Positions 5,535 to 63,990 of a stretch of DNA of 64,000 nucleotides are shown one piece after another. This DNA comes from a virus. Its lineage: Duplodnaviria > Heunggongvirae > Uroviricota > Caudoviricetes. Each line of letters opens with the position of its first letter. Position 1 is the first letter of the stretch. A program made the translations under genes and the position numbers. The notes beneath the pieces are model-generated. The model was given only the letters and a program-made list of their open reading frames with translations. It had not been told where the DNA came from and ran no database searches. The DNA is taken from the IMG/VR virus record IMGVR_UViG_3300033146_005641, positions 119,352 to 183,351 of that record; one strand, written 5' to 3'.

Positions 5535-5535
5535 C

Positions 5536-6321: not shown

Positions 6322-6324
6322 TTA

Positions 6325-6657: not shown

Positions 6658-6687
6658 AGAATTCCTTTTTTATTTTATTTATATTAT

Positions 6688-7039: not shown

Positions 7040-7601
7040 ATATTATGAAGTTTCAAGATATGAGGATACGATAACTATCCTAAAACCAATAACTCCAAAA
7101 GAGGCAGAAGAACTAAACACTGTTAACGTATTAAAAATAGACGATGAGAAACTTAATAAATTTATTAATCTAAATGTTGACGAAAAAACAATAACTATTA
7201 ATAAAAACGGCGAAGTAGAATTAGGCGAAAACACCTACTATGGTATATCTCTTAGAGATGAAAATAAAGTAAAAATAGCTAAAAGGGCTAGACAAAAGCT
7301 AGATGGTATCGTTCACACTTCCGACCTAGTGTATTATATAGAATTTATTGAAACTAATAACATTCTAAATTCTAGAGGTTTTTTTATCACCGAGGATAAT
7401 AAAGAAGAGAAATATTTAGAAATTTTAGAGGCAGGTGATGAAGATCTTATAAACACCTTAGAAAGATTTTTAAATTCGCGAGATAAACTAGGAAAGGTTA
7501 AATCTGCTAAAACAGAATTTGATAATATTATTGAAAGTTTAAAATACGCTGATGAAAATAACAAGGAAGAATTAGAACAAATTGAAAGAAAAATCACGTA
7601 A
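7032..7601 (+). CDS. hypothetical protein
   Basis: 189-aa ORF. Overlaps the upstream stop (ATGA-type coupling). Confidence 0.4.
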   Translation: MNKYYEVSRYEDTITILKPITPKEAEELNTVNVLKIDDEKLNKFINLNVDEKTITINKNGEVELGENTYYGISLRDENKVKIAKRARQKLDGIVHTSDLVYYIEFIETNNILNSRGFFITEDNKEEKYLEILEAGDEDLINTLERFLNSRDKLGKVKSAKTEFDNIIESLKYADENNKEELEQIERKIT

Positions 7602-8385: not shown

Positions 8386-9193
8386 TGATGATAGTGATAT
8401 TCTCTTAACGTTTTCTTGGGGTAATTTTACACACGGAGTTTCAGGACATCTTTTCGAATGTATAGAATATTATTATATTTTAAAAAATCAATTCAATGTA
8501 AAAATTCTTATTCCCGAGAATATTAAAAACTATAAAGAGACTATAGAATCTAAATATAATTTTGAAAAAGACGAAATAAGAGATATTTTAGAAAATACTA
8601 TTTTTTCAGTAAAACCGGCTTTAGTTAAAACTAATAATATATTTTTTGTGGATGGTTCCTGGAAAAATATTAAGAGATCTAATATATTATATAAGAAAAT
8701 CTTATGTTTCGCTTGTGGAGACCTTAGTATTTTAGAACAGGATGAATCTACGGTTCTATTAGATTATAGAGTATATGACAAAGTTCCTTCTAAATCTTTT
8801 AACTACAAGAAAAAACTATTATTAAAAAAATTAAAGAAACCTGTTAAATCTGAAAATAAAGTATTAATTTATGCTACCGAAAATTGTAGAGATACTGACT
8901 ATGATACAGAAAATTCCTTAAAAGTAAAAAAAGAAGACCTGCCTATTTTAAATATTTTTGAAAAATTTAATAAGTATGTTTATACTCCTGTATCCAGAAA
9001 ATTTGATTGTTCGCCTAGATTCCTAGTTGAGTGTAGATATTTTAATAAAGAAATAGAATTTTATAATATAGATTATTGGAAAGAAGATAGAGGGCTATAT
9101 TATAGATGGAGAGATATAGAAGAAGATTTTGAGTCTCTGATTTTAGAGGAGAATGATGAGATTATAGATATTTTAAAATCTATAATCCAATAA
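8375..9193 (+). CDS. hypothetical protein, paralog of 7582..8385
   Basis: See the previous feature. Tandem paralog pair with overlapping stop and start. Confidence 0.4.
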   Translation: MIINDDSDILLTFSWGNFTHGVSGHLFECIEYYYILKNQFNVKILIPENIKNYKETIESKYNFEKDEIRDILENTIFSVKPALVKTNNIFFVDGSWKNIKRSNILYKKILCFACGDLSILEQDESTVLLDYRVYDKVPSKSFNYKKKLLLKKLKKPVKSENKVLIYATENCRDTDYDTENSLKVKKEDLPILNIFEKFNKYVYTPVSRKFDCSPRFLVECRYFNKEIEFYNIDYWKEDRGLYYRWRDIEEDFESLILEENDEIIDILKSIIQ

Positions 9194-10061
9194 TTCTCTC
9201 AATTTCATTCCTAAATCTTTCAGAAGATACTTTTTTCTGAGCATCTTCAAAATTTCTTCTAACTTCTTTTAAGGATCTTTTATCAGGAGTAAATTTCGTT
9301 TTACTGATAAATCTATAAAACCTAATAACTCTAAGATAGTCTTCCTGAATTCTATCTTCTGGATTACCAATAAATTTAAGAACTTTATTTTCGATATCAA
9401 AAATGCCCTCTAAATTAGGATCTATGACTTCTTTACTTAATAAATTATAATAGATAGCATTAATAGTAAAATCTCTTCTTTTAGCATCATCAAAAATAGT
9501 TCCAATTTCTACCGATTCGGGTCTTCTACCGTCTTTATAGGTGCCGTCTTTTCTAAAATTTGCAATCTCATAATCCATACCATTTTTAGAGACGATAACT
9601 ACTAAAAACTGTTTCCCTACTTCTTTAACCTGAAAGTCATGTTCTTTAAAAATATTTTTAATCCTATCATAATTTATATCTGTCACGAAATCAAAATCTT
9701 TTGGTTTCTTTTTTAGTATAATATCTCTAACAGATCCTCCGACCATAGAACTATTTTTAGAGAAAGATGATAGAATACTCATAACCTCTAAAGTAGTTTT
9801 ATCGAGCGTATAATTTTTAATTCTTCTAGAAAATTCTTTTTTAAGGTATTGAAATTTAACTCCAAGTCTTGAAAATCTTGGTTCTTTATTTTCTTCTATT
9901 AAAAGAAAATCTCTTATTAAATCATACTCCTCTGAAGGTTCCTCATCTAATGCGTATCTAGCTCTTAATGCTTTTTGATAACAATCGATAGGTAAAAAAT
10001 TTAATTTATTATGTTTATTATATAAAATATTATTAATTTCTTTTTTAATTCTTTCTTTCAT
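9180..10061 (-). CDS. tRNA nucleotidyltransferase (CCA-adding) / poly(A) polymerase family protein
   Basis: Head-domain motifs GGSVRDIILKKKPKDFDFVTD (GGxVRD...DxD) and RRDFTINAIYYN (RRDFTINA) are diagnostic of the class II CCA/PcnB nucleotidyltransferase family. Confidence 0.75.
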   Translation of the reverse strand: MKERIKKEINNILYNKHNKLNFLPIDCYQKALRARYALDEEPSEEYDLIRDFLLIEENKEPRFSRLGVKFQYLKKEFSRRIKNYTLDKTTLEVMSILSSFSKNSSMVGGSVRDIILKKKPKDFDFVTDINYDRIKNIFKEHDFQVKEVGKQFLVVIVSKNGMDYEIANFRKDGTYKDGRRPESVEIGTIFDDAKRRDFTINAIYYNLLSKEVIDPNLEGIFDIENKVLKFIGNPEDRIQEDYLRVIRFYRFISKTKFTPDKRSLKEVRRNFEDAQKKVSSERFRNEIERIIGL

Positions 10062-10120
10062 TTGCTCTCCTTTATATAATATATTATATAATAATAGTCC
10101 TTAATAACATATTAATCATA

Positions 10121-10175
10121 CTTTAAGTCTCTTTATTCTATAATATGTTTTATATAAAGAGAGAAGGATAGAAAG
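10121..10175 (+). promoter_or_regulatory. junction-cassette promoter copy (no upstream FI-tail ORF)
   Basis: CTTTAAGTCTCTTTATTCTATAATATGTTTTATATAAAGAGAGAAGGATAGAAAGATG. Contains TATAAT, then TATATAAAG (T4 late-promoter-like), then the AAGGA RBS. Confidence 0.5.
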
Positions 10176-10802
10176 ATGAGGTTTAGAGACACTAAATATG
10201 GTGATTTAACAGGACAAACCTATGAAGGTAATATTAGTGTAGAGGATTTAAGTCTAACTTCTCTAGAAGGCGCTCCAGAGGTAGTTAATGGTAATTTTGA
10301 TTGTTATAATAATCAATTAACTTCTCTAAAAGGAGCTCCAGAGGTAGTTAGAGGAAATTTTAATTGTTCTAACAACAATTTAGCCTCTCTAGAGAGAGCT
10401 CCTAAGGTAGTCGATGGTAATTTTTATTGCTCTTACAACAATTTAACCTCTCTAGAGGGGGCTCCGGAGATAATTAATGGTAATTTTTATTGTCATTTTA
10501 ATAATCTAACCTCTCTAGAGGGTTCTCCTAAGGCAGTTAATGGTATTTTTTATTGTTATAATAATAAACTTACTTCTCTAGAAGGAGCTCCAGAGGCAGT
10601 TAGAGGAGATTTTAGTTGCTCAGATAACAATTTAACTTCTCTAGAAGGAGCTCCTAAGGTAGTCGATGGTAATTTTTATTGCTTTAATAATCGACTAGTT
10701 TCTCTAGAAGGTCTACCATACTCTAAAAATGTTAGTTCAGATTTTAGTAAATTAGAAGTTGATGAGTATATGAAGGATGTATTTCCTTATCATTTTATCT
10801 GA
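10176..10802 (+). CDS. LTSLEGAP 21-aa repeat protein (leucine-rich-type repeats), paralog family member
   Basis: N-terminus MRFRDTKYGDLTGQTYEG, then tandem 21-aa units NxLTSLEGAPxxVxGxFxCxx, then C-terminal ...DVFPYHFI. Confidence 0.7.
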   Translation: MRFRDTKYGDLTGQTYEGNISVEDLSLTSLEGAPEVVNGNFDCYNNQLTSLKGAPEVVRGNFNCSNNNLASLERAPKVVDGNFYCSYNNLTSLEGAPEIINGNFYCHFNNLTSLEGSPKAVNGIFYCYNNKLTSLEGAPEAVRGDFSCSDNNLTSLEGAPKVVDGNFYCFNNRLVSLEGLPYSKNVSSDFSKLEVDEYMKDVFPYHFI

Positions 10803-10854
10803 TTTTAAGTCTTATTACACTATAATATATTATATAAAGAGAGAAGGATAGAAA
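10785..10854 (+). promoter_or_regulatory. junction cassette (encodes ...PYHFI stop, promoter, RBS, ATG)
   Basis: CCTTATCATTTTATCTGATTTTAAGTCTTATTACACTATAATATATTATATAAAGAGAGAAGGATAGAAAATG. Confidence 0.55.
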
Positions 10855-11862
10855 ATGAATTTAGAAAAAATTAGAGAAATTGAAAAACAATATAATATTA
10901 AGATTATCTATATTACAGTGAGCGGTTCTAAATTATATGGTACAGATAATGAAAACTCAGATACCGATTATAAAGGAATTTTTATTCCTTCTGTAGAAGA
11001 CGTTTTACTAAAAAGAGATAAATCCTCTATAGATCTTAGCACAAATAAAACAAACATTAAAAATTCTAAAGAGGATGTAGATATTACTTTACATAGTATT
11101 CATAGTTATTTTAATCAGCTATCTAAATTCGAAACAGGTGCTGCAGATGTTCTTTTTAGTATGTTTAGAAAAGACACTATCATTTACGAAACACCCGAAT
11201 CTAAAACTATTAAAGATAATTATAAATTATTTTTAAATAAAAATATGAAATCTTTTATCGGATATGCTTTAGGTCAAACTAAAAAATTCGGAATTAAGGG
11301 AGCTAGATATAATGAATTAGATAATTTTGTTAAATGGCTAAATTCAGTTGACAAAGATAAATCTATTAAATTAGAAAATTTATTTGATGATATTAAAAAT
11401 TATATTAAAGAAAACAACACAAAATATATCAAATTTGTTAAAACACAAGGATCTAACAATGAAATTTGGGATTATATTTCTATTCTTGGTAAATTATTTC
11501 ACGGTAGTGTGACTCTAGAATATTTTATAACAAGAATTAATCAACTATATAATCAGTTTGGTAATAGAACAAAAACTATTGCTAGTACAGATTCTAAAAC
11601 GGACTTTAAAGCATTATCTCACGCATATCGCGTAGCTTATGAGGTCGAAGAACTTTTAGAAACTAGTTTTATTAGATTTCCTTTAAATAGTAAAAAATTT
11701 ATTAAATCTATTAAAGAAGGTAAACAAAGTTATGAGGGTGTTGTAGAAATAGTTCAACAAATTTTAGAACGTGTAGACCTTTTATTATTAGAATCTAAGC
11801 TGCCCGAAGAAGCGAATAGAAAAGAAATTGATAAAATCTTACTAAATTACTATAAATACTAA
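10855..11862 (+). CDS. Pol-beta-type nucleotidyltransferase-fold protein, unknown substrate
   Basis: hG[GS]x9-13DhD signature: ITVSGSKLYGTDNENSDTDYKGIF. The C-terminal two thirds are predicted helical. Confidence 0.5.
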   Translation: MNLEKIREIEKQYNIKIIYITVSGSKLYGTDNENSDTDYKGIFIPSVEDVLLKRDKSSIDLSTNKTNIKNSKEDVDITLHSIHSYFNQLSKFETGAADVLFSMFRKDTIIYETPESKTIKDNYKLFLNKNMKSFIGYALGQTKKFGIKGARYNELDNFVKWLNSVDKDKSIKLENLFDDIKNYIKENNTKYIKFVKTQGSNNEIWDYISILGKLFHGSVTLEYFITRINQLYNQFGNRTKTIASTDSKTDFKALSHAYRVAYEVEELLETSFIRFPLNSKKFIKSIKEGKQSYEGVVEIVQQILERVDLLLLESKLPEEANRKEIDKILLNYYKY

Positions 11863-11873
11863 AATGGAGAACC

Positions 11874-12875
11874 ATGAACTACAATAAGTTTTCAAAACCT
11901 AACCTAATACTAGATATACAATACAATTTAAGAGCTAAGCTCGATACAGGATTGAGATGTAATTATAATTGTTTCTTTTGTTATTATAAAAATAATCTTA
12001 GAGATCCTGAACTTTCTTTAGAAGAAATTAAAAAAAGAGCACAAATCTTAAAAGAATCAGGAATGAAGGAGGTAGACCTCTCAGGAGGAGAATCTACTAT
12101 TCATTCGAAATGGTTCGAAATTTTAGAATATTGTAATGAGAATTTTGAGAAAGTGTCTTGTCTAAGCAATGGTTCAAAACTAAAATCAAAAGATTTTGCT
12201 AAAAAATCCTTAGAAAAAGGATTAAAAGAGGTATTATTTTCTTTACACGGCTATGATGAAAAATCTCACGATGAGATAGTCGGTCATAAAGGTGCTTTTA
12301 AAAACATCATAAACGCTATCAGAATATGTCAAGAGATTGGTATTGATGTTAGGATTAATTGTACAGTAACCTCTAAAAATATGAAAAATTTAGAAACGTA
12401 TTCTAATCTAATAAAAGATTTAAACCCTTCTCAATTAAACTATCTACCCCTTAATTACTGGGATGATGCTAAAGACTCTAAACCTGAAAAATATGGAGAA
12501 TTATCAACATATATTAAACAATCTATAGATATTTTAGAAAACTCAAATATAGAAATTAATGTAAGATATATTCCTTATTGTTTTATGGAGAGATATGAAA
12601 AATATGTTTGCGATACGTATCAACATATTTTCGATTTAAAAGATTGGAATATTTTAGTCTATGATTTAAAAGAACCTAAAAATTTCACCCTAGAAGAAGC
12701 TTTTAATGAAGCTTTTAATAAAAGAAATTATACTTATTATAAACCAAAAAAATGTTTCGAATGTAAGTTTTTTAAAATTTGTGATGGAGTAGAAAATAAT
12801 ATTAAAGATACTCAGGATGTTTATCCTATAAGAGGAAAGAAAATCGAGAATGTAGTGGAATTTAGAGTTAATTAG
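11874..12875 (+). CDS. radical SAM enzyme, viperin-like
   Basis: CNYNCFFCYY (CxxxCxxC) and LSLEEIKKRAQILKESGMKEVDLSGGEST. Compare viperin CNYKCGFCFH and [29 protein letters not shown] as recalled from memory. Downstream LSNGSKL, SLHGYDEKSHDEI and NCTVTSKN also echo viperin segments. Confidence 0.65.
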   Translation: MNYNKFSKPNLILDIQYNLRAKLDTGLRCNYNCFFCYYKNNLRDPELSLEEIKKRAQILKESGMKEVDLSGGESTIHSKWFEILEYCNENFEKVSCLSNGSKLKSKDFAKKSLEKGLKEVLFSLHGYDEKSHDEIVGHKGAFKNIINAIRICQEIGIDVRINCTVTSKNMKNLETYSNLIKDLNPSQLNYLPLNYWDDAKDSKPEKYGELSTYIKQSIDILENSNIEINVRYIPYCFMERYEKYVCDTYQHIFDLKDWNILVYDLKEPKNFTLEEAFNEAFNKRNYTYYKPKKCFECKFFKICDGVENNIKDTQDVYPIRGKKIENVVEFRVN

Positions 12876-12921
12876 TTTTTAAGCTATATTATTATATAAT
12901 ATAATAACTGAAAGGAAGAAC

Positions 12922-13113
12922 ATGATAATTTATTTTATTGGTATGAGTATTTTATTAATTTTGGGATTAGCAAGTTTAGTAATTTCTAAAGACGATGAAT
13001 GTAATATATGCGTTTTACCTTGCGTTATAAGCGCATTAGTTTTTAGTCTTACTTCTTGGGTAGGTATTATTTTAATACTTTTAAGGAATATTAGGAGAAT
13101 TTGGTTTGAATAA
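12922..13113 (+). CDS. small hydrophobic protein
   Basis: 63 aa, two predicted transmembrane-like segments. Confidence 0.3.
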   Translation: MIIYFIGMSILLILGLASLVISKDDECNICVLPCVISALVFSLTSWVGIILILLRNIRRIWFE

Positions 13114-13288
13114 TAAAATATTTACAAATATTAAGAATAATATTATTTTAAAGTATGAGGTGATGCTTTGGTGGTTTCATAAGCCTGATGAATATTGGTT
13201 AGAAGTAGTAAAATTTTTAATATTTTTACTAGCTATTACTTTATTATTTTCATCATCTTATTACATTACACATAATATTTTATTTTAA
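13106..13288 (+). CDS. small hydrophobic protein
   Basis: 60 aa, hydrophobic core LEVVKFLIFLLAITLLF. Confidence 0.3.
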   Translation: MNNKIFTNIKNNIILKYEVMLWWFHKPDEYWLEVVKFLIFLLAITLLFSSSYYITHNILF

Positions 13289-13298
13289 AGGAAGAAAA

Positions 13299-13451
13299 AT
13301 GAGTTTTGACGATATTGCAAAACGGCTAGGTATGAGAAAATCAGAAGCTGTTAAAATTTACGAGAGAGCTATGAGGAAACTAAAAATGCCTTCAAAAGAT
13401 AATCAAAAATTCTGGGAATATGTACATATAAATGAACATAGGGATAATTAG
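13299..13451 (+). CDS. 50-aa stand-alone sigma-70 region 4.2-like HTH protein
   Basis: Below the ORF-track size cutoff. AAAGGAAGAAAAATG RBS. MSFDDIAKRLGMRKSEAVKIYERAMRKLKMPSKD aligns residue-by-residue with E. coli sigma-70 [33 protein letters not shown] (recalled). Confidence 0.5.
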   Translation: MSFDDIAKRLGMRKSEAVKIYERAMRKLKMPSKDNQKFWEYVHINEHRDN

Positions 13452-13572
13452 TGGATGAAGATTTATTCGAATTAATGGACAGGCAAATTAGAAAACAAGG
13501 TCTGGATGACATATACGAAAATATCATGAATGAAATAAAGAGATTATGGGTGTCTTTTAATAGTTATTTTTT

Positions 13573-13851
13573 ATGAAAGATTTAAAAATATATATTAAAC
13601 AAGATGGAATGTATAATACCCTAGAAATAGTATTATCTAATATTCCCGTAGAAGATGTTAAAGACTGGTATAGTTTCGGTAGTCATAAAGAGTTTTCAAA
13701 TCTTATGGAAGCCCTATTATATATTAATAGTGTCTTTTTATCTGACACAGATTCTGCAGACTGTGTTAGAATTATAGATAGAAAAATTTCCGACGAGATT
13801 ACAATAACTAAAAAACAAATAAGAGAAATGTATCCTCAACATTTTATATAA
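13573..13851 (+). CDS. hypothetical protein ending ...YPQHFI
   Basis: 92-aa ORF with a C-terminal tail of the PQYFI family. Confidence 0.45.
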   Translation: MKDLKIYIKQDGMYNTLEIVLSNIPVEDVKDWYSFGSHKEFSNLMEALLYINSVFLSDTDSADCVRIIDRKISDEITITKKQIREMYPQHFI

Positions 13852-43518: not shown

Positions 43519-44649
43519 ATGTCTCAATGTCAGAATACTCGTAATGACGACTCGATTCACGTAGACATTAATACTACATCGATATGTAATATAGCGTGTA
43601 CATATTGTTCAGAAGGTAATGAGTGCGGTCTAAGTTCTTTATATCTTAAAAATACTCAAATAAAAGTAGAAGATTTAATTAATAAACTTAATAAAGATCC
43701 TGCAAAAGGTAAAACTATTAATTTTTGGGGCGGAGAACCTTTCATCAATTTCGACTTTTGTAGGACTATTATAGAGGAATTTAAAAAAGACCCCTCATTT
43801 TCTTTTTTCTTCTATACTAACGGAATTTTAGTTCCACAATATATAAAAATCTTAAAACAATGGAATGAGGAATTCGGAAAAGAAAAGGGATATGACGGGC
43901 AGCCCAGACTAATCATTCAGATTTCTTATGATGGAAAATGGTTAACAGATAACATTAGAATTGATAAAACAGGTAAGGGTACGTCCGAAAGAGTAGAAAA
44001 GGCTTTTAAACTATTAAAAGAAAATAATATAGAAACATCTCTAAAATCTGTTATATCTTCTGACGGATTTTCACATCTTTTTGAAAGTTATAGAGATTGT
44101 ATGGAGCTACAAGAGTTTTATAATCCTACTCCCGATTTATGGTCAGATAGAACAGAAGAAGAATTTGCCGAAGATTTAAAAATACTTGAAAAAGAATTAG
44201 AAAGGATTGCTTCATATATTGTCGCTAATAATTTAAAACCTGACTCTTTTTCTTGGTTTGGAATGTCTCGAGCTATTTGTTCAGTGGGTTCTAATATGAT
44301 TTCTGTAGATTTAGACGGAAAACTATATCCTTGTCACGCAGGAATGTATGGAGAAAGGATTGAACATGTTATGGGTCATATAGATAATTTTACAGAAGTA
44401 AAAGAGAGAGCTATGGAGGCGTTTAGAAAAATTAATTCTCATTTACCTGAAGAATGTCAAAAATGTGATGTTAATTTTTGTATGAAGTGTCAAATGGCTA
44501 ATTTTTCAAAATCAGCAGAACTAGATTACGCTAAAAAATTTACGGACTATCAAGCTAATTGGCAGGTGTGTAGATTATTTAAAGTAAATGACAAGTATAA
44601 TAAAATTGTTCAATTTATGAGTCAGAATCCGGAAGAGTTAAATATATGA
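43519..44649 (+). CDS. radical SAM enzyme with SPASM domain
   Basis: CNIACTYCSE, GGEPFI, C-terminal multi-Cys CQKCDVNFCMKCQMANF plus upstream CSVGS...C...CHAG. Confidence 0.75.
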   Translation: MSQCQNTRNDDSIHVDINTTSICNIACTYCSEGNECGLSSLYLKNTQIKVEDLINKLNKDPAKGKTINFWGGEPFINFDFCRTIIEEFKKDPSFSFFFYTNGILVPQYIKILKQWNEEFGKEKGYDGQPRLIIQISYDGKWLTDNIRIDKTGKGTSERVEKAFKLLKENNIETSLKSVISSDGFSHLFESYRDCMELQEFYNPTPDLWSDRTEEEFAEDLKILEKELERIASYIVANNLKPDSFSWFGMSRAICSVGSNMISVDLDGKLYPCHAGMYGERIEHVMGHIDNFTEVKERAMEAFRKINSHLPEECQKCDVNFCMKCQMANFSKSAELDYAKKFTDYQANWQVCRLFKVNDKYNKIVQFMSQNPEELNI

Positions 44650-44684
44650 GATATCTTCCATAAAGAAGCAAAGGTGGAAATTTA

Positions 44685-45791
44685 ATGGCTGTTTTTGATA
44701 CGTTTACGTTAGAATTAAAAATTTCAGATCAATGTTCTATGAGATGTCCGTATTGTTATGAAACTTTTACAGATACATATATGACTAAAGAAACTTTTGA
44801 TAGGTCTCTAGTAAAAGTAATAGATATGATGGGGAGATCAGAAACTAAAAAACTTAATTTAAGTTTTTTTGGTGGAGAACCTATGATGAATTGGGAGCTA
44901 ATAGAACATGCTACAAAAGTTCTTAGAAAGCTACCCATAGAGGTTACTTTAGTAGTTATATCTAATATGACTCTTATAGATGAATATAAAGTTAAATGGT
45001 TAAAAGAGAATAATGTGGGGGTATCTTGGTCATTCGATGGAATATCTTCTAATGAAACCAGACCTCTAGCTACCCAATTTATAAATCCAAAAGCAGACGG
45101 AACATCTTATAAAAGTACCCTAGATTTATATAAAGATAAGATAGATCTAATATTGTCTCTTACGAATGGGTGTAAGGTTATGGTGTGGCCAGGTAATTCT
45201 AAACAAATGACAGAGAATTTAGAATTTTTTGTAGATAGTGGAATTATAGCACCCGATTTTTCTTTGATAAGAGATGATGTATGGTCTAAAGAAGATATTA
45301 TTAATTTTAGAGATGATATTAGAAGATTAGGTGATAGATATATTAAATATATAAAAGACGAGGTTTACGTAAATGTTGGTTTCTTTACACTTTGTATTCT
45401 TGATAATATATTTGGATTAACCTTTCAAAAAAGATCTTTCGGGTGTTTTGCAGGTACTACAGGTGCAGTAATGACGACAGATGGAAAATTTTATCCTTGT
45501 GCTAGATTTTCAGATAAAAAAGTTATGGAAATTACACCAGAATATTCTTTTACCTACTGGCAAGAAAAGTTTAAGCCTGAAAACTATGATAAGTGTCAGT
45601 CTTGTGATTTATATGATGTTTGTAATGCAGGGTGTTTATATTCTCAAATTAGAAATAATAATAAACCTTTAGATAGTATATGTGAGCTATATCATATTAT
45701 ACAAGAGGAAACGCAAAGAGTGGTTCACGAATTAAAAGACGAACCAACGTTTCATCAAGTAATAAATAACATTTTTAAAAATATAGGATAG
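44685..45791 (+). CDS. radical SAM enzyme with SPASM domain (anSME-like)
   Basis: CSMRCPYCYE, FGGEPMM, C-terminal CQSCDLYDVCNAGC. Overall layout like anaerobic sulfatase-maturating enzymes. Confidence 0.75.
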   Translation: MAVFDTFTLELKISDQCSMRCPYCYETFTDTYMTKETFDRSLVKVIDMMGRSETKKLNLSFFGGEPMMNWELIEHATKVLRKLPIEVTLVVISNMTLIDEYKVKWLKENNVGVSWSFDGISSNETRPLATQFINPKADGTSYKSTLDLYKDKIDLILSLTNGCKVMVWPGNSKQMTENLEFFVDSGIIAPDFSLIRDDVWSKEDIINFRDDIRRLGDRYIKYIKDEVYVNVGFFTLCILDNIFGLTFQKRSFGCFAGTTGAVMTTDGKFYPCARFSDKKVMEITPEYSFTYWQEKFKPENYDKCQSCDLYDVCNAGCLYSQIRNNNKPLDSICELYHIIQEETQRVVHELKDEPTFHQVINNIFKNIG

Positions 45792-48597: not shown

Positions 48598-50028
48598 ATG
48601 AGAAACTATAAAAATTCAAACGACCTAATAACATATCTTTGTATAGACTACCTAGAATCTAAAGGCTATAAATTTTTAGAGAATAGAGGATATACTATTT
48701 CTGTGGAAAAAGATGCCGATAAAAATTTTTATTGGACATCTGATTCACCTTTTAAAATATTTCATCCTGTAGAACATAAGACTCACAACTATTTTAAAGA
48801 AATTTCTAAGTTGAGAGAATTTAAAAAATTATGGGGTGAGAAATGTGATGAAGACCTCAATGAAATATTTCAAGAAGAGGATATAAACTCCTATAAAATA
48901 AAAACTAATGTACAAGATCTGGATAATTTTAAAGATGATGTTAGTAATTTTTTAGAGAATTATAAATTTTTAAAGATTTCCTCGCCTATGGCTACTAGAA
49001 AAAGTATTATAATTGAGGAGACACTTAAGCAATCCTTAAGAAAGAGGTTAAGAGTTTTATTTATTACTCCTAGAGTTTCTTTATCCTATGATATCCATAA
49101 AAAATATTTTCCTCACTTATCTCACTATAAACATAGTAATTATACTCTAGGAGATAGTCTAGTAGTTCAATTTGATAGTTTACATAAGTTTGACATGGAT
49201 TATTTTGATATAGTAATATTAGATGAGGTTACCAGTTTAATGTTATATATGAGCGATACGTATGAGGGAAAGGCTGAAAGATATAGAAAAAATCTTCAGA
49301 AATTTTATTCTCTAAAAGATAAAAAATTCTTATTATTAGATGCTTTTCTTTTAAAGTTTCCGCTAGAATCTGAAGACGATAGATCTCTCGGTATATTAAA
49401 TAATTTTAGAGAAGATATAAAAATAACTGAATATGTTAATAAAAACAATTTTACAGGAAGAATAATTAGAGAAGCTAAAAAGAATCCTATATCGGTTTCA
49501 AGTAATGAAAAAAGATTTTTAGTAAAAATTAAAGAAAAACTAGAAAAAAGAGGATTAAGATGTTTGATGCTTAATTCCGAAACCGTAGATAAAGATAGTG
49601 TATATGAAGAGTTTGCAAAAAAAGAAACGGATTATGATGTTATATTATATTCACCTACGTTAACAGTCGGAGTAAGTATTTTTTCTAATATTAAAAATCA
49701 TTTTCATTACGATTTATCCGGAACTATTGACGTTATCAGTTCTATTCAGATGATAAGAAGAGTTAGAAACGCTAAACACATTCATTATTATATTCAGGGT
49801 AGAAGAAGTTTTCTTCCAACGGAGGAAAAAATTATTCAAAGACATTTAGAGGATAGTTTTAAAATTATTAACGAATTTGGAGAATCTTTCGGTATTAATA
49901 AAATAGGTGAAATGTTGAGTAAAATAAAAAGAATAAAAAACGTTTTATTAAATTCTCACAAATATGCTTTTAGAGATTTATTAAAAAGACAATTTAAAGA
50001 AGTAGAATTTAATAAATTGGAGATATGA
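48598..50028 (+). CDS. P-loop NTPase, helicase-like (divergent Walker A SPMATRKS, Walker B ILDEVTSL)
   Basis: 476 aa. The motifs are degenerate and the family is not recognised. Confidence 0.35.
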   Translation: MRNYKNSNDLITYLCIDYLESKGYKFLENRGYTISVEKDADKNFYWTSDSPFKIFHPVEHKTHNYFKEISKLREFKKLWGEKCDEDLNEIFQEEDINSYKIKTNVQDLDNFKDDVSNFLENYKFLKISSPMATRKSIIIEETLKQSLRKRLRVLFITPRVSLSYDIHKKYFPHLSHYKHSNYTLGDSLVVQFDSLHKFDMDYFDIVILDEVTSLMLYMSDTYEGKAERYRKNLQKFYSLKDKKFLLLDAFLLKFPLESEDDRSLGILNNFREDIKITEYVNKNNFTGRIIREAKKNPISVSSNEKRFLVKIKEKLEKRGLRCLMLNSETVDKDSVYEEFAKKETDYDVILYSPTLTVGVSIFSNIKNHFHYDLSGTIDVISSIQMIRRVRNAKHIHYYIQGRRSFLPTEEKIIQRHLEDSFKIINEFGESFGINKIGEMLSKIKRIKNVLLNSHKYAFRDLLKRQFKEVEFNKLEI

Positions 50029-50237
50029 TGGAATTTTATTTTAAAAAGACGCTGTTTGGAATGGTTTTAATGGTAAAAGATAGAAAACCAGGAAATTGGC
50101 CTGGAGAGTGGAAGTATTTTTGGAGAAGAGCATCTCAATTAGAAGCGTCTAATTTTACTACTGAAACAGGAATAGCTAAAAAAGAAGTGGAGAGTTATAG
50201 AGAATTTAAGGATAAGTTCCCTCAATATTTTATCTGA
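50025..50237 (+). CDS. small protein ending ...KFPQYFI
   Basis: 70 aa. Start ATGATGG overlaps the upstream stop. Confidence 0.4.
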   Translation: MMEFYFKKTLFGMVLMVKDRKPGNWPGEWKYFWRRASQLEASNFTTETGIAKKEVESYREFKDKFPQYFI

Positions 50238-50290
50238 TTTTAAGTTTTAATATGTTATAATATATTATACAAAGAGAGAAGGATAGAAAG
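50216..50290 (+). promoter_or_regulatory. junction cassette
   Basis: TTCCCTCAATATTTTATCTGATTTTAAGTTTTAATATGTTATAATATATTATACAAAGAGAGAAGGATAGAAAGATG. Confidence 0.55.
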
Positions 50291-50980
50291 ATGAGGTTTA
50301 GAGACACTAAATATGGCGATTTAACAGGACAAACCTATGAAGGAGATATTGATGTAAGTGGTTTAAACTTAACATCTCTAGAGGGTGCTCCAGAGGTAGT
50401 TAAAGAAGGATTTTACTGTAATGATAATCAATTAACTTCTCTAGAGGGTGCTCCTAAGGTAGTCGACGGTAGTTTTTATTGCTATGATAATCAATTAACC
50501 TCTCTAGAGGGTGCTCCTAAGGTAGTTAGAGGAGATTTTGATTGTTATAATAATAAACTAACTTCTCTAGAAGGGGCTCCTGAGGTAGTTAAAGAAGGAT
50601 TTTACTGTAATGAAAACAGTCTAACTTCTCTAGAGGGTGCTCCTGAGGTAATCGGTGGTAATTTTAATTGCACTTACAACAATTTAACTACTCTAGAAGG
50701 AGCTCCAGAGACAGTTGGTGGTAGTTTTAATTGCTCTAAAAATAATCTAACTTCTCTAGAAGGTGCTCCAGAGGTAGTTAATGGTAATTTTAATTGTTAT
50801 AATAATAAACTTACTTCTCTAGAAGGCGCTCCTGAGAGAGTTAGAAGAGATTTTGATTGTTCAGAAAACGATCTAACTTCTCTAGAGGGATTACCTTTTT
50901 CTAGAGAAATAAGGTCCGATTTTGATGAAAGAGAGATTAATGATTATATTAAAGATAGATTTCCCTATCGTTTTATATGA
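50291..50980 (+). CDS. LTSLEGAP 21-aa repeat protein (paralog)
   Basis: MRFRDTKYGDLTGQTYEGDIDVSGLNLTSLEGAPE..., C-terminal ...RFPYRFI. Confidence 0.7.
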   Translation: MRFRDTKYGDLTGQTYEGDIDVSGLNLTSLEGAPEVVKEGFYCNDNQLTSLEGAPKVVDGSFYCYDNQLTSLEGAPKVVRGDFDCYNNKLTSLEGAPEVVKEGFYCNENSLTSLEGAPEVIGGNFNCTYNNLTTLEGAPETVGGSFNCSKNNLTSLEGAPEVVNGNFNCYNNKLTSLEGAPERVRRDFDCSENDLTSLEGLPFSREIRSDFDEREINDYIKDRFPYRFI

Positions 50981-51033
50981 TTTTAAGTCTTATTATACTA
51001 TAATATCTTATATAAAGAGAAAAGGATAGAAAG
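50963..51033 (+). promoter_or_regulatory. junction cassette
   Basis: CCCTATCGTTTTATATGATTTTAAGTCTTATTATACTATAATATCTTATATAAAGAGAAAAGGATAGAAAGATG. Confidence 0.55.
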
Positions 51034-51912
51034 ATGAAGTTTAGAGATACTAAATATGGCGATTTAACAGGACAACCTTATGAAGGTGATGTTGATGTAA
51101 GTGGTTTAAACTTAACATCTCTAGAGGGTGCTCCTGAGGCGGTCGATGGAGATTTTAATTGTTCTAGTAACAATCTAACCTCTCTAGAGGGTACTCCTAA
51201 GGTAGTTGAAGGAGATTTTTACTGCTCTCACAACAATTTAACTTCTCTAGAAGGAGCTCCTGAGATAGTTAATGGTAATTTTAATTGCACTTACAACAAT
51301 TTAGCCTCTCTAGAAGGGGCTCCGGAGGTAATAGATGGTAGTTTTTACTGCTATGATAATCAATTAACTTCTCTAGAAGGGGCTCCTAAGGCAGTTAAAG
51401 GAGATTTTGATTGTTATAATAATAAACTTACTTCTCTAGAAGGTGCTCCAGAGGTAGTTAAAGAAGGATTTTACTGTAATGAAAACGGTCTAACCTCTTT
51501 AGAAGGAGCTCCAGAGATAGTTGATGGTAGTTTTTACTGCTATGATAATCGATTAACCTCTCTAGAAGGAGCTCCTGAGGTAGTCGGTGGTAATTTTAAT
51601 TGCTCTAAAAACAATCTAGCTTCTCTAGAAGGAGCTCCTAAGGTAGTTAATAATAATTTTGATTGCTCTAAAAATAATCTAGTCTCTCTAGAAGGATCTC
51701 CTGAGGTAGTCGGTGGTAGTTTTTACTGCTATGATAATCGATTATCTTCTCTAGAAGGTGCTCCTAAGATAGTTAAAGAAGGGTTTCACTGTAATAAAAA
51801 CAATCTAACTTCTCTAGAGGGAATACCCTATTCTAAAGGAATAATAGCTGATTTTAGTAAACTAGAAGTTAATGATTACCTAAAATCTAAATTTCCTTAT
51901 CATTTTATCTGA
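51034..51912 (+). CDS. LTSLEGAP 21-aa repeat protein (paralog)
   Basis: MKFRDTKYGDLTGQPYEGDVDVSGLNLTSLEGAPE..., C-terminal ...KFPYHFI. Confidence 0.7.
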   Translation: MKFRDTKYGDLTGQPYEGDVDVSGLNLTSLEGAPEAVDGDFNCSSNNLTSLEGTPKVVEGDFYCSHNNLTSLEGAPEIVNGNFNCTYNNLASLEGAPEVIDGSFYCYDNQLTSLEGAPKAVKGDFDCYNNKLTSLEGAPEVVKEGFYCNENGLTSLEGAPEIVDGSFYCYDNRLTSLEGAPEVVGGNFNCSKNNLASLEGAPKVVNNNFDCSKNNLVSLEGSPEVVGGSFYCYDNRLSSLEGAPKIVKEGFHCNKNNLTSLEGIPYSKGIIADFSKLEVNDYLKSKFPYHFI

Positions 51913-51961
51913 TTTTAGGTCTCTTTATTCTATAATATATTATATAAAGAAGGATAGAAAG
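51895..51961 (+). promoter_or_regulatory. junction cassette
   Basis: CCTTATCATTTTATCTGATTTTAGGTCTCTTTATTCTATAATATATTATATAAAGAAGGATAGAAAGATG. Confidence 0.55.
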
Positions 51962-53029
51962 ATGACGTTTAAAGATACTAAGTATGGTGATTTAACAGGA
52001 CAAACCTATAAAGGTGATATTAATGTATGTGGTTTAGATTTAACCTCTCTAGAAGGGGCTCCAGAGGTAGTTGATGGTAGTTTTTACTGCTATGATAATC
52101 AACTAACCTCTCTAGAAGGATCTCCTGAGGTAGTCGATGGTAATTTTTACTGTTATGATAATCAATTAACTTCTCTAGAAGGGGCTCCAGAGGTAGTTGA
52201 TGGTAATTTTTATTGTCATAATAATCAATTGACTTCTCTAGAAGGATCTCCGGAGGTAGTCAGCGGTATTTTTTATTGTTATAATAATAGACTTACTTCT
52301 CTAGAGGGGTCTCCTAAGATAGTTAAAGGAGATTTTTATTGCTCTTACAACAATTTAACTTCTCTAGAGGGGGTTCCGGAGGTAGTTGATGGTAGTTTTT
52401 ATTGCTATGATAATCGATTATCCTCTCTAGAAGGAGCTCCTAGGATAATCGATGGTAATTTTTATTGTTATAATAATCGACTAATTTCTCTAGAAGGTGC
52501 TCCAGAGGCAGTTGATGGTAATTTTTATTGTTATAATAATCGATTAACTTCTCTAGAAGGCTCTCCAGAGGTAGTCGACGATAATTTTGATTGTTCAGAA
52601 AATGATCTAGCTTCTCTAGAAGGGTCTCCTAGAGTAGTTAATAATAATTTTGATTGCTCTAAAAATAATCTAGTCTCTCTAGAAGGATCTCCTGAGGTAG
52701 TTAGAGGATATTTTGATTGTTCAAACAATCAACTAACTTCTCTAGAGGGAGCTCCAGAGATAGTTAAAGAAGGCTTTTACTGTAATAAAAACGATCTAGT
52801 TTCCCTAGAGGGGGCTCCTGAGGTAGTCGATGGTAATTTTAATTGTGCTAAAAATAATCTAACTACGCTAGAAGGGGCTCCTAAGGTAGTTGATGGTAAT
52901 TTTTACTGCTATGATAATCGATTAACTTCTCTAGAGGGATTACCTTTTTCTAGAGAAATAAGGTCTGATTTTAGTAAACTAGAAGTTAATGATTACTTAA
53001 AATCTAAATTCCCTTATCATTTTATCTGA
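51962..53029 (+). CDS. LTSLEGAP 21-aa repeat protein (paralog, longest)
   Basis: MTFKDTKYGDLTGQTYKGDINVCGLDLTSLEGAPE..., C-terminal ...KFPYHFI. Confidence 0.7.
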   Translation: MTFKDTKYGDLTGQTYKGDINVCGLDLTSLEGAPEVVDGSFYCYDNQLTSLEGSPEVVDGNFYCYDNQLTSLEGAPEVVDGNFYCHNNQLTSLEGSPEVVSGIFYCYNNRLTSLEGSPKIVKGDFYCSYNNLTSLEGVPEVVDGSFYCYDNRLSSLEGAPRIIDGNFYCYNNRLISLEGAPEAVDGNFYCYNNRLTSLEGSPEVVDDNFDCSENDLASLEGSPRVVNNNFDCSKNNLVSLEGSPEVVRGYFDCSNNQLTSLEGAPEIVKEGFYCNKNDLVSLEGAPEVVDGNFNCAKNNLTTLEGAPKVVDGNFYCYDNRLTSLEGLPFSREIRSDFSKLEVNDYLKSKFPYHFI

Positions 53030-53082
53030 TTTTAAGTCTTATTACACTATAATATATTATATAAAGAAAGAAGAATAGAAAG
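53012..53082 (+). promoter_or_regulatory. junction cassette
   Basis: CCTTATCATTTTATCTGATTTTAAGTCTTATTACACTATAATATATTATATAAAGAAAGAAGAATAGAAAGATG. Confidence 0.55.
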
Positions 53083-53415
53083 ATGAGAAAGCTTACAAAA
53101 TCAGAACTTAATTTATATAAGGATTATATTTCAGGATATGTATCATTATTATCACCTGAAGAAATGTCTGAAGAAATGGAAATCGAAATTGAAGATACCG
53201 AAACAGGAAAAATAATAACTTCAGGTACCTTTAATCCTTCTTATTTTGTAGAATCTGCTTCAGCAGTAAAAACAGAAGAAATAAATGAACTAAAAAATAT
53301 AATTGAAAGATATGAAAAATTTCTTAATAGAATGTCAATAAAAACAGAATATTATGATATAGATGATATGATAGATGGTCTAGAAGACTATGATGTAGTA
53401 ACTCAAAAAGGATAA
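53083..53415 (+). CDS. hypothetical acidic protein
   Basis: 110 aa. Follows a junction cassette. Confidence 0.4.
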   Translation: MRKLTKSELNLYKDYISGYVSLLSPEEMSEEMEIEIEDTETGKIITSGTFNPSYFVESASAVKTEEINELKNIIERYEKFLNRMSIKTEYYDIDDMIDGLEDYDVVTQKG

Positions 53416-61850: not shown

Positions 61851-61879
61851 TTTAAAATCATATGATATAAGAGGAAAAG

Positions 61880-62176
61880 ATGATAGAATGGAAAGATTTA
61901 GAGGTTGGGGATGTATTTATCTATAGGTTTGAAAAAGATTCTTATTTTTTAGCATATGTTTTACGGGCTAATAAAGATGTAAGTATCGAGATTCAAGATA
62001 TAAAGAATATTTCAAGAGGTGTGTCGAAAGGTATGTCCATAGAAGTAGATTCTTTTAATATATTTTTTAGTGATAAATATGATATGAGTACTTTTAAATT
62101 AGTAAAATATTTAGGTAATTTGAAAGGTGGAAGAGTAGAAGAGTTTAGTGTTAAGTTTCCTCAATATTTTATATAG
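61880..62176 (+). CDS. 98-aa protein, tandem paralog 1, ending ...VKFPQYFI
   Basis: MIEWKDLEVGDVFIYRFEKDSYFLAYVL... Confidence 0.5.
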   Translation: MIEWKDLEVGDVFIYRFEKDSYFLAYVLRANKDVSIEIQDIKNISRGVSKGMSIEVDSFNIFFSDKYDMSTFKLVKYLGNLKGGRVEEFSVKFPQYFI

Positions 62177-62229
62177 CTTTAAGATATATTACAATATAAT
62201 ATATTATATAAAGAGAAAAGGATAGAAAG
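62159..62229 (+). promoter_or_regulatory. junction cassette
   Basis: CCTCAATATTTTATATAGCTTTAAGATATATTACAATATAATATATTATATAAAGAGAAAAGGATAGAAAGATG. Confidence 0.5.
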
Positions 62230-62526
62230 ATGAGAGAATGGAAAGATTTAGAAGTTGGGGATGTATTTATCTATAGGCTTGAAAAAGATTATTATTTTTT
62301 AGCATATGTTTTACAAGCTAACGAAGATGTAAGTATCGAGATTCAAGATATAAAGAATATTTCAAGCGGTATATTAAAAGATGCGCCTATAGAAGTAGAT
62401 TATTTTAATATATTTTTTAATGGTAAATATGATATGAACACTTTTAAATTAGTAAAATATTTAGGTAATTTGAAAGGTGGAAGAGTAGAAGAGTTTAGTG
62501 TTAAGTTTCCTCAATATTTTATCTAA
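62230..62526 (+). CDS. 98-aa protein, tandem paralog 2, ending ...VKFPQYFI
   Basis: MREWKDLEVGDVFIYRLEKDYYFLAYVL... Near-identical to 61880..62176 except for a central patch. Confidence 0.5.
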   Translation: MREWKDLEVGDVFIYRLEKDYYFLAYVLQANEDVSIEIQDIKNISSGILKDAPIEVDYFNIFFNGKYDMNTFKLVKYLGNLKGGRVEEFSVKFPQYFI

Positions 62527-62575
62527 TTTTAGGTTATTTTATTCTATAATATATTATATAAAGAAGGATATAAAG
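62509..62575 (+). promoter_or_regulatory. junction cassette
   Basis: CCTCAATATTTTATCTAATTTTAGGTTATTTTATTCTATAATATATTATATAAAGAAGGATATAAAGATG. Confidence 0.5.
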
Positions 62576-63391
62576 ATGAAGTTTAGAGACACTAAATACG
62601 GTGATTTAACAGGACAAACCTATGAAGATAATATTGATGTATGTGGTTTAGATTTAACCTCTCTAGAGGGTGCTCCTGAGATAGTTAATGGTAGTTTTTA
62701 CTGCTATGATAATCAACTAACTTCTCTAGAGGGTGCTCCTAAGACAATCGATGGTAGTTTTAATTGCTCTAGCAACAATCTAACTTCTCTAGAAGGAGCT
62801 CCAGGGGCAGGTAAAGACGGGTTTTACTGTAATAACAACAATCTATCTTCTCTAGAGGGTTCTCCTAGGATGGTCGATGGTAATTTTAATTGCTCTTACA
62901 ACAATTTAACTTCTCTAGAAGGAGCTCCAGGAGTAGTTAATGGTAGTTTTTACTGTTATGATAATCAACTAACCTCTCTAGAAGGAGCTCCGGAGGTAGT
63001 TAATAATAATTTTAATTGTTCAGATAATCAACTAACTTCTCTAGAAGGAGCTCCAGGAGTAGTTAATGGTAATTTTAATTGCTTTAGCAATCAATTAACT
63101 TCCCTAGAGGGGGCTCCGAAGGTAGTTAGTGGTAGTTTTGAATGTTCTTACAATAATCTAACTTCTCTAGAAGGAGCTCCGGAGGTAGTTAATAATAATT
63201 TTAATTGCTCTAAAAATAATCTAACCTCTCTAGAAGGAGCCCCTAAGGTAGTTAGTGGTAATTTTTACTGTTATGATAATCGATTAGCTTCATTAGGATA
63301 TCTACCCTACTCTAAAAATGTTAGTTCAGATTTTAATAAAAATGAAGTTAATGATTACTTAAAATCTAAATTCCCTCAACATTTTATCTGA
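62576..63391 (+). CDS. LTSLEGAP 21-aa repeat protein (paralog)
   Basis: Start at the ATG at 62576 (MKFRDTKYGDLTGQTYEDNIDVCGLDLTSLEGAPE). The ORF track's 62498 GTG start runs through the junction cassette. C-terminal ...KFPQHFI. Confidence 0.7.
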   Translation: MKFRDTKYGDLTGQTYEDNIDVCGLDLTSLEGAPEIVNGSFYCYDNQLTSLEGAPKTIDGSFNCSSNNLTSLEGAPGAGKDGFYCNNNNLSSLEGSPRMVDGNFNCSYNNLTSLEGAPGVVNGSFYCYDNQLTSLEGAPEVVNNNFNCSDNQLTSLEGAPGVVNGNFNCFSNQLTSLEGAPKVVSGSFECSYNNLTSLEGAPEVVNNNFNCSKNNLTSLEGAPKVVSGNFYCYDNRLASLGYLPYSKNVSSDFNKNEVNDYLKSKFPQHFI

Positions 63392-63402
63392 TTTTAAGTC
63401 TA
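63374..63402 (+). promoter_or_regulatory. truncated junction cassette (tail-coding part plus TGATTTTAAGTCT only; promoter, RBS and ATG missing)
   Basis: CCTCAACATTTTATCTGATTTTAAGTCT is followed immediately by mid-repeat coding sequence. Confidence 0.5.
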
Positions 63403-63990
63403 GAGGTAGTTAAAGGAAGTTTTTACAGCTTTAATAATCAATTAACCTCTCTAGAGGGTGCTCCAGAGGTAGTTAGAGGAAATTTTAATTGTTCTAACAA
63501 CAATTTAACCTCTCTAGAGGGTGCTCCTAAGGTAGTTAGAGGAGATTTTGATTGTTATAATAATAAACTAACTTCTCTAGAGGGTGCTCCTAAGGTAGTT
63601 AGAGGAGATTTTGATTGTTATAATAATAAACTAACCTCTCTAGAAGGGGCTCCTAGGGCAGTTAATGGTAATTTTAATTGCTCTAGCAACAATTTAGCTT
63701 CTCTAGAAGGAGCTCCTAAGACAGTTAAAGGAGATTTTTATTGTTCTTACAACGATCTAACTTCTCTAGAGGGAGTTCCGGAGGTAGTCGATGGTAGCTT
63801 TTACTGTAATGAAAACAATCTAACTACTCTAGAAGGAGCTCCTAAGGCAGTTAAAGGAGATTTTTACTGCTATGATAATCGATTAACTTCATTAGGATAT
63901 CTACCCTACTCTAAAAATGTTAGTTCAGATTTTAATAAAAATGAAGTTAATGATTACTTAAAATCTAAATTCCCTCAACATTTTATCTGA
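63403..63990 (+). pseudogene. 5'-truncated, start-less LTSLEGAP repeat-gene fragment (mosaic of paralog sequences) ending ...KFPQHFI
   Basis: In-frame repeat units (EVVKGSFYSFNNQLTSLEGAPEVVRGNFNCSNNNLTSLEGAPKVVRGDFDCYNNKLTSLEG...) begin directly after TGATTTTAAGTCT. No ATG, GTG or TTG lies in frame between the upstream stop (63352-63354) and the TGA at 63988-63990. Segments are identical to parts of the 10176 and 50291 genes. Confidence 0.6.

Follow-up and report, generated by a model that had tools for sequence, protein, structure and literature searches.

Why a bacteriophage should keep several copies of a gene built almost entirely from one short repeated unit is the question raised by the 64,000-nucleotide (nt) stretch analyzed here (the window), which covers positions 119,352 to 183,351 of the virus record IMGVR_UViG_3300033146_005641 (Caudoviricetes). 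An earlier reading of these letters (the original prediction) had pointed out a tandem array of such genes. Inspection of the open reading frame (ORF) listing revealed five intact paralogs encoding leucine-rich repeat (LRR) proteins, all at the predicted coordinates, together with a 5′-truncated sixth copy. On balance, we lean toward the explanation that the products of these genes attach to host proteins within the cell during infection and that their specificities are renewed by shuffling of the repeats. The copies are listed below; the tag is the short peptide with which the C-terminal cap ends.

10176..10802, plus strand: LRR copy A, 208 amino acids (aa), with an N-terminal cap (N-cap), 7 full 21-aa units and a C-terminal cap (C-cap) carrying the FPYHFI tag
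50291..50980, plus strand: LRR copy B, 229 aa, 8 full units and C-cap
51034..51912, plus strand: LRR copy C, 292 aa, 11 full units and C-cap; the copy used for the AlphaFold2 model
51962..53029, plus strand: LRR copy D, 355 aa, 14 full units and C-cap
62576..63391, plus strand: LRR copy E, 271 aa, 10 full units and C-cap; the start is the ATG at 62576, not an upstream GTG
63392..63990, plus strand: truncated sixth LRR copy (F), with 7 full units and the C-cap kept

Segmentation of the proteins at the L-x-S-L-E-G anchor gave the same architecture for every intact copy, namely a 26-aa N-cap, n units of 21 aa and a 35-aa C-cap, with n equal to 7, 8, 11, 14 and 10 in copies A to E; the proposal that unit number differs among copies was thus confirmed. 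The period is exactly 21 aa (63 nt), with zero insertions or deletions in 57/57 full units. Tandem Repeats Finder, which is independent of the ORF segmentation, also detected 63-nt arrays at six loci, with scores of 401-807 and 73-79% matches. Copies B, C and D are strictly tandem, as had been noticed, their sole spacers being junctions of 53 nt and 49 nt. The shared N-terminus was likewise confirmed in general and reads M[RKT]F[RK]D, but the pattern first proposed for it was too narrow, since the 355-aa copy D begins with MTFKD.

The sixth copy is likely a pseudogene. After the stop codon of copy E, the 10 first nt of the junction cassette described below are fused directly to mid-unit sequence, leaving copy F with neither a promoter -10 element nor a Shine-Dalgarno (SD) site nor a start codon. 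A serine replaces the invariant cysteine in its first partial unit, and over its final 104 nt it matches the end of copy E exactly.

Leu1, Leu4, Pro8, Phe15, Cys17 and Asn20 are invariant in 57/57 units, Glu5 and Gly6 are found in 56/57, and each full unit reads ..V-x-G-x-F-x-C-x-x-N-x-L.. (57/57). A crude Nei-Gojobori count for each unit position showed that nonsynonymous diversity (pN) is close to zero at scaffold codons, with a synonymous diversity (pS) of 0.6-1.5 at most of them. Because scaffold residues are fixed while their codons differ abundantly by synonymous changes, the conservation of the unit goes far beyond chance. Positions 9, 10, 12, 14, 16, 18, 19 and 21 are variable, Tyr, Asn, Asp and Ser predominate from position 14 to 19 and, among the variable positions, also at 12 and 21, and pN/pS exceeds 1 at positions 7, 10, 12, 14, 18 and 21 among the window units.

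By convention, the x residues of the strand and ascending loop of the LRR core motif, LxxLxLxxNxL, are solvent-exposed on the concave sheet. In the window unit, Phe15, Cys17, Asn20 and the Leu1 that follows occupy the L4, L6, N9 and L11 places of this motif, so that positions 14, 16, 18 and 19 should be the exposed residues of the concave strand and ascending loop. Amino-acid change is concentrated on the x positions of the xFxCxxNx beta-strand motif.

An AlphaFold2 model of the 292-aa copy C, computed from an alignment of 32 paralogs and homologs, gave a regular solenoid with a predicted local distance difference test score (pLDDT) of 96.2 and a predicted template modeling score (pTM) of 0.90. 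Short strands recur every 21 residues in this model and a C-terminal capping helix occupies residues 276-286, in line with the solenoid anticipated by the original prediction. All 57 full units carry the core motif of the LRR superfamily (tandem 20-30-residue repeats, LxxLxLxxN/CxL), and the predicted structure has the shape typical of the superfamily, in which each repeat forms one turn of a curved solenoid and the strands build a parallel beta-sheet. The Foldseek search of the PDB ranked YopM at the top (4ow2, E 3e-6), followed by SDS22, SspH1, IpaH1.4, IpaH3 and internalin J (InlJ), with a probability of 1.00, while the search of BFVD returned "leucine-rich repeat" proteins of Marseillevirus, mimivirids and uncultured Caudovirales. 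At the sequence level, phmmer against the PDB gave InlJ as the best match (E 4.6e-16), with SspH2 (1.9e-11), SspH1 (4.7e-9) and IpaH7.8 also found, and the unit cysteine aligned with the ladder cysteine of InlJ.

NCBIfam likewise gave internalin_J as the best match, but its scores fall far below the family cut-offs (97.8 bits for internalin_J, cut-off 1700; 73.6 for SspH2, cut-off 1243), so the likeness is limited to the repeats. Pfam LRR_4 scored around its threshold, reaching 39.6 bits (cut-off 27) with the longest copy, D. The BspA/TpLRR subtype suggested by the original prediction, and the FNIP subtype with it, was rejected, as the Pfam LRR_5 and FNIP profiles gave zero matches in the five intact proteins even at E <= 1 while LRR_4 matched; the nearest types are the 21-residue cysteine-ladder LRR of InlJ and the LPX LRR. 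No Pfam or NCBIfam domain other than LRR was found in these proteins, and nothing is left past the 35-aa C-cap. In agreement with the first reading, neither a signal peptide nor a hydrophobic N-terminus nor a membrane segment is visible in their sequences, the N-terminus MRFRDTKYGDLTGQ being polar. Their sequences thus point to a cytoplasmic location, and according to the model these proteins are small stand-alone solenoids with a buried Phe/Cys/Asn ladder, a short N-cap and a helical C-cap.

Comparison with the two nearest types sharpens this picture. InlJ (PDB 3bz5) has the same 21-residue period and a cysteine at one core hydrophobic place per repeat, but the window proteins lack its signal peptide, internalin N-cap, Ig-like inter-repeat domain and LPXTG anchor; the convex half of their repeat, TSLEGAPxxV, is also different, and they are phage-encoded and probably cytoplasmic whereas InlJ is a surface protein. 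The LPX effectors (YopM, SspH1/2, IpaH and SlrP) share short repeats, the LTSL..P signature and a non-helical convex side, and their LRR is the target-recognition module of an intracellular effector, a role like that proposed here. Unlike them, the window proteins have no NEL E3 ubiquitin-ligase domain or secretion signal, and their period is 21 aa with a cysteine ladder instead of 20/22 aa without one.

Each intact LRR gene is preceded by a junction cassette with the core TTTAAG-N5-TTA-N3-TATAATAT, followed by ATTATATAAAGAGAGAAGGATAGAAAG and then ATG; before copy A it reads TTTAAGTCTC..TATAATAT..AAAGAGAGAAGGATAGAAAG-ATG. The cassette includes a perfect TATAAT as -10 element and an SD site. 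Its core occurs 16 times in the window, compared with 0.9 expected, at 10122, 10804, 12878, 18294, 20785, 23170, 50239, 50982, 51914, 53031, 56479, 58210, 62178 and 62528 on the plus strand and at 10105 and 42327 on the minus strand. Every cassette faces into a downstream gene, including genes adjoining the topoisomerase, helicase and RNA ligase genes, and besides the LRR genes it serves DNA-metabolism and small accessory genes. The cassettes at the LRR loci, with the ORFs that flank the array, are the following.

10122..10175, plus strand: promoter and SD cassette of LRR copy A
50025..50237, plus strand: non-LRR ORF of 70 aa that separates the helicase gene from the array; it is tagged, ending in KFPQYFI, and has a conserved counterpart in the relative L012 described below
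50238..50290, plus strand: junction cassette (promoter and SD) of copy B
50981..51033, plus strand: junction cassette of copy C
51913..51961, plus strand: junction cassette of copy D
53030..53082, plus strand: cassette past the array, ahead of an unrelated 110-aa ORF (53083-53415)
62527..62575, plus strand: junction cassette of copy E

The T4 late motif TATAAATA is depleted in the window (13 found, 31 expected). Most of its copies lie 5-30 nt upstream of genes, several of which are structural or packaging genes (tail-fibre-like, terminase), at positions that include 4310, 6676, 37153 and 41905 on the minus strand and 11851, 38230 and 42331 on the plus strand. This distribution suggests that gp55-type late transcription operates in the phage. 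Scanning of the window revealed no late motif ahead of any LRR gene, and no terminator or stable RNA structure was found between the tandem LRR genes, the junctions having fold z-scores of -1.05 to +0.78. We infer that the LRR genes are transcribed early or in the middle of infection by a host-type polymerase. The cassette decamer TTTAAGTCTT corresponds to the upstream (-35) consensus of Campylobacter jejuni sigma-70 promoters, TTTAAGTnTT (PMC3824568), but only 7 nt separate it from the -10 hexamer. This is a hint that the host is Campylobacterota-like or that the promoter has an unusual geometry, like that of the -30 box of T4 middle promoters.

In its promoter-like part and its flanking of variable genes, the cassette recalls the promoter-early stem-loop (PeSL) cassettes of T4-type phages (PMC2839356, PMC4122927), which are also short early-type promoter cassettes repeated at the boundaries of variable accessory genes, where they offer homology for insertion, deletion and shuffling. 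It differs from PeSL by the absence of a stem-loop terminator, and the conserved block of the window reaches into coding ends, taking in the tag codons on its upstream side and about 26 nt from the start of the LRR genes on its downstream side. A search of IMG/VR for exact matches to the cassette core returned a single contig, IMGVR_UViG_3300026484_000476 (28 kb), with a site at 4314-4338 that is flanked by a P-loop gene and by small ORFs and has QueC/QueE-like genes upstream of it. This contig looks unrelated and contains no LRR genes; it may come from a distant relative with the same promoter type.

LRR units are ~75% identical in DNA, within genes and between genes alike, yet exact tracts of 41-104 nt join copies up to 53 kb apart (10 kb to 63 kb of the window), for example 48 nt between A and F, 77 nt between B and F, 68 nt between C and D and 56 nt, covering tag and cassette, between A and D. 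Such long exact tracts amid ~75% identity indicate gene conversion or unequal exchange.

Turnover is also visible in L012, a locus on metagenomic contig Ga0256837_1000497 that belongs to a close relative of the window phage. Eleven flanking genes are 74-98% identical in protein to those of the window (mostly 82-98%; helicase 92%), and the gene order is shared: helicase, 70-aa tagged ORF, three LRR genes, 110-aa ORF. The LRR genes of L012 contain 8, 8 and 11 units, versus 8, 11 and 14 in the window array, and their products are 60-73% identical to any window copy, the window paralogs being mutually 65-76% identical. Unit-by-unit comparison of the L012 and window genes did not find colinear orthology, and the L012 genes carry a fresh three-unit block duplication (in one gene) and duplicated single units. 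Synonymous divergence between the two phages is 0.49-0.66 at the LRR scaffold codons and 0.11-0.16 in the immediate neighbours. Judging from these alignments, the LRR locus has been reshuffled since the window phage and L012 split.

Differences extend to a Vibrio phage genus formed by pv27, phiTY18, phiKT1024, SRILMA and TDDLMA, with 82-94.7% intergenomic similarity (PMC12063606). In SRILMA and TDDLMA, the gene that immediately follows the replicative helicase codes for a homolog of 211 aa whose seven units are nearly identical to one another; phiKT1024 encodes an 85-aa homolog with a single unit at a different locus, and no LRR homolog was found in pv27 and phiTY18. A cap-only query also detected two remnants (P0266 and P0267) on a 183-kb JGI contig (183,351 nt): one of 65 aa, in which the N-cap is joined to the C-cap with zero units and a frameshifted tag, and another of 47 aa. 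These are likely decayed LRR copies in the near-complete genome of a relative. Copy and unit number thus do vary among related phages, and rapid turnover of the family is well supported.

The repeat type itself is widespread. A word-indexed search gave at least 7,394 matches, and an exhaustive search of 1.84 billion representatives gave 26,573 at E <= 1e-3, 13,371 at 1e-10 and 2,080 at 1e-30. Some members of this wider family are 2,000-4,000 aa long, and some are fused to PcfJ-like or Laminin_G_3 domains. The contexts examined look like large phages (contigs of 140-253 kb with SegE/RecU or queuosine genes plus lysozyme), and the same repeat is present in bacterial genomes and metagenome-assembled genomes. 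A 735-kb uncultured phage has 17 matching places, and Lak phages match too. Positions 178-13816 of IMGVR_UViG_3300044960_000113 (184 kb) hold thirteen LRR paralogs (177-346 aa) with MKLQELFLKEE... and ...NNFKSEPDHSFINIGGEFIWK as their shared caps, and twelve of these genes are strictly tandem, with overlapping ATGA stop/start junctions. The repeat type found in the window has expanded there independently and to a greater extent. The LRR families of large phages and giant viruses, annotated "leucine-rich repeat protein", thus share with the window genes the repeat type, the tandem multi-copy arrays and the variable unit number, but they differ in their N- and C-caps, in having ATGA overlaps and not a promoter cassette per gene, and in lacking the C-terminal tag. 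The fold and the habit of tandem expansion were already known, and the capped, tagged, promoter-per-gene form is new, though not unprecedented.

The tag deserves separate consideration. The original prediction had treated the ending FP[YQ]HFI as part of a module of the LRR family, which proved incorrect: at least ten unrelated ORFs of the window share the ending [FYH]PxxFI, so it is not an LRR-family signature. In the form [FYH]P[QYH][YHR]FI, the tag ends 15 of the ~85 window genes (~18%), all on the plus strand and with a median length of 117 aa, and the stop codon follows directly in 16/17 plus-strand occurrences of the peptide. The tagged non-LRR genes end at 13851, 23168, 50237, 56477, 58208, 60234, 60454, 61850, 62176 and 62526 (plus strand). 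Synonymous variation is found among the tag codons. A related ending, [FYWH]PEx[FYL][ILF], is found on 14-16 genes per 40-50 kb in the Vibrio phages SRILMA and phiKT1024, where it precedes the stop codon in all 12 (SRILMA) and all 16 coding-strand (phiKT1024) occurrences; the tagged genes of these phages often overlap the next gene, and their tag codons differ from those of the window. The clade carrying the tag comprises, besides the window phage, the metagenomic relative L012 and the genus of Vibrio phages to which SRILMA and phiKT1024 belong. Across 14 orthologous pairs, the six tag codons have a pS of 0.44 and a pN of 0.039 (pN/pS 0.09), whereas the 40 codons upstream have a pS of 0.42 and a pN of 0.127 (pN/pS 0.30). 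Low pN at ordinary pS indicates that selection acts on the tag peptide.

Several explanations of the tag were discarded. The idea that it merely accompanies the promoter cassette was dropped: the tagged ORFs that end at 13851 and 60234 have no cassette, and the idea is also countered by the codons and gene overlaps of the Vibrio phages and by the peptide-level selection in orthologs. Since the DNA polymerase ends in ...ESLDDW, which is unlike the tag, a clamp-binding tail was rejected. The reverse complement of the SD region resembles tag DNA, and from this came the idea that tag codons mask the downstream SD site by pairing; it was abandoned in view of the z-scores of six folded junctions (-1.05 to +0.78). 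Neither Campylobacter phage CP220 nor any other LRR-bearing contig that was examined has the tag, Pfam detected no domains in ten tagged proteins, and literature searches on the repeat motif, the tag peptides and a shared C-terminal motif returned nothing relevant. TGA follows the tag in 7/15 genes, versus 12/70 elsewhere (p = 0.035), although these counts are not independent of paralogy. In the model of copy C, most of the tag follows the capping helix with a pLDDT of ~91, falling to 73 for the last two residues. The tag may serve in docking, act as a degron or contribute to the folding of C-terminal caps. As a side observation, a 350-nt tandem duplication, 90% identical, at 61876-62564, directly upstream of copy E, has produced two tagged 98-aa paralogs (61880-62176 and 62230-62526), each with a cassette.

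The solenoid build, the variable exposed positions, the TATAAT cassette and the absence of a late motif together lead us to favor early intracellular binders. Under this explanation, a host-type RNA polymerase would produce the LRR proteins early or mid infection, and they would work in the cell as protein-binding modules of differing specificity, their likeliest targets being variable host proteins involved in host takeover or counter-defence; a counter-defence role specifically is a guess. In the turnover seen here, slippage or unequal exchange between 63-nt units alters unit number, exchange at the conserved boundaries of ~75-110 nt (tag codons, cassette and first codons) duplicates, deletes and disperses the genes, and patchy gene conversion connects distant copies. 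Several observations weigh against this explanation or weaken its supports. The placement of the variable positions on the concave face follows from the LRR convention and from the strand pattern assigned by DSSP in the model. Between the window and L012, the variable LRR codons have a pN of 0.37-0.45 and a pN/pS of 0.56-0.84, below 1, so that diversifying selection is plausible but not proven; in addition, the synonymous divergence of the LRR genes, higher than that of their neighbours, implies reshuffling or replacement and not point substitution alone, which tempers any reading as positive selection. The decamer-to-TATAAT spacing is 7 nt, versus ~19 nt in C. jejuni, which makes the reading of the cassette by the polymerase unclear, and the expression timing rests on the promoter consensus. 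PHROGs 7816 and 21719, both of unknown function, gave no functional lead for the family, PADLOC returned only noise for the LRR proteins (E ~7e-4), with no defence or anti-defence lead, and the giant or Laminin_G_3-fused (lectin-like) members of the wider family would suit surface or virion roles.

This last point is also part of the case for virion-associated or host-range accessories, that is, internalin-like adhesins or decoration proteins whose variable faces would recognize the host surface, as envisaged among other roles when the array was first noticed. LRRs are classic adhesion modules, InlJ matches best by sequence, some proteins built on this repeat reach very large sizes or carry lectin-like domains, the fast diversification resembles that of receptor-binding proteins, and an LRR-like ORF has been reported in the tail module of other vibriophages (PMC10945359). 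We nevertheless consider such a role unlikely, mainly because of promoter type and genome position, both of which favor an early intracellular one: the late motif precedes tail-fibre, terminase and similar genes but no LRR gene, each LRR gene is instead under the TATAAT cassette of replication and accessory genes, and in the window as in SRILMA the LRR genes follow the replicative helicase among small early-type ORFs, outside the structural module. The proteins also lack a signal peptide, an anchor and an attachment domain, and the gene is absent in some members of one genus. That variability within a genus could also be expected if the arrays were selfish or neutral repetitive DNA that stays open by chance and encodes functionless proteins, an idea to which the promoterless fragment F and the frameshifted remnants in a relative lend some color. 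It is contradicted by the strong purifying selection on the scaffold (pN ~0 at high synonymous diversity), and five long ORFs in perfect 63-nt register, the promoter, SD site and start codon retained by each intact copy, a fold predicted with very high confidence and the persistence of the family at the same locus in a relative despite complete reshuffling all speak against it as well, so that we regard it as very improbable.

The tag raises another possibility, that the LRR proteins are variable adaptors, in which the solenoid would capture a host protein and docking of the [FY]Pxx[FL][IL] tag would bring the complex to a single shared partner, such as a protease or a factor of replication, division or transcription. 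The effector would then act in trans, by analogy with F-box-LRR or IpaH LRR-NEL proteins. The spread of the tag over unrelated genes of the window, its abundance in SRILMA and phiKT1024, its immediate position before the stop codon and the selection on its peptide are all consistent with this, as is the fact that the LRR genes of the window clade are tagged while the LRR arrays of other phages are not. However, no receptor of the tag is known, the literature searches found nothing on it, its mostly well-predicted conformation after the capping helix may simply make it part of the C-cap fold, and its difference from the C-terminus of the phage DNA polymerase means that it is not the usual clamp-binding tail. 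In its broadest form, the proposal would make [FYH]P-x-x-[FYL]-[IL]-COOH a portable docking or fate signal on ~1/6 of the genes of the clade, with the LRR paralogs as a diversifying set of adaptors carrying different host proteins to a single receptor; we hold both forms to be quite doubtful. If true, the tag and the LRR paralogs would constitute a phage-encoded, trans-acting analogue of the F-box-LRR or IpaH design, and if the tag is a recognition signal, it would suggest that many early phage proteins are handled in a shared way. The tag was unexpected and is the most original side observation of this work.

Stand-alone LRR proteins are abundant in large phages, and none has an assigned role. 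The anatomy of this array is unusually clear, combining a minimal capped solenoid, a promoter per gene, variation on canonical binding positions and near-complete reshuffling beside ~90%-identical neighbours, which makes it a good experimental entry point to the targets of phage LRR proteins, for example in host defence or takeover. The scaffolds with 0, 1 and 7 to 14 units also form a natural series usable in protein engineering.

Regarding the genome that carries the array, the window has ~28% G+C and belongs to a T4-like phage. The original prediction's placement of the genome is borne out by a T4-type large terminase, the large and medium subunits of topoisomerase II and RNA ligase 1, and a UvsW-like helicase, two radical-SAM proteins and tail-fibre-like proteins are encoded as well. 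The terminase shares 43% identity with its counterparts in phiKT1024, pv27 and phiTY18, which are Vibrio phages of 191 kb, and 41-42% with those of CP220-group Campylobacter phages. When the array and a 24-kb part of the window were compared with the GenBank phage set by megablast, no DNA-level relative was found, and neither the helicase nor the N-cap DNA pattern led to a close relative in scans of IMG/VR.

Two further features of the window were recorded. The gene at 4371-5534 (minus strand), which has YadA-head repeats (PF05658), contains a 42/84/126-nt periodic array at 4726-5135 and probably encodes a repetitive fibre or adhesin; next to it lies the gene of a tail-fibre-repeat protein of 784 aa. 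The two radical-SAM genes are adjacent (43519-45791), one of them with a SPASM domain, and are 94-96% conserved in L012; carrying several such genes is likewise characteristic of the Campylobacter CP220 group.

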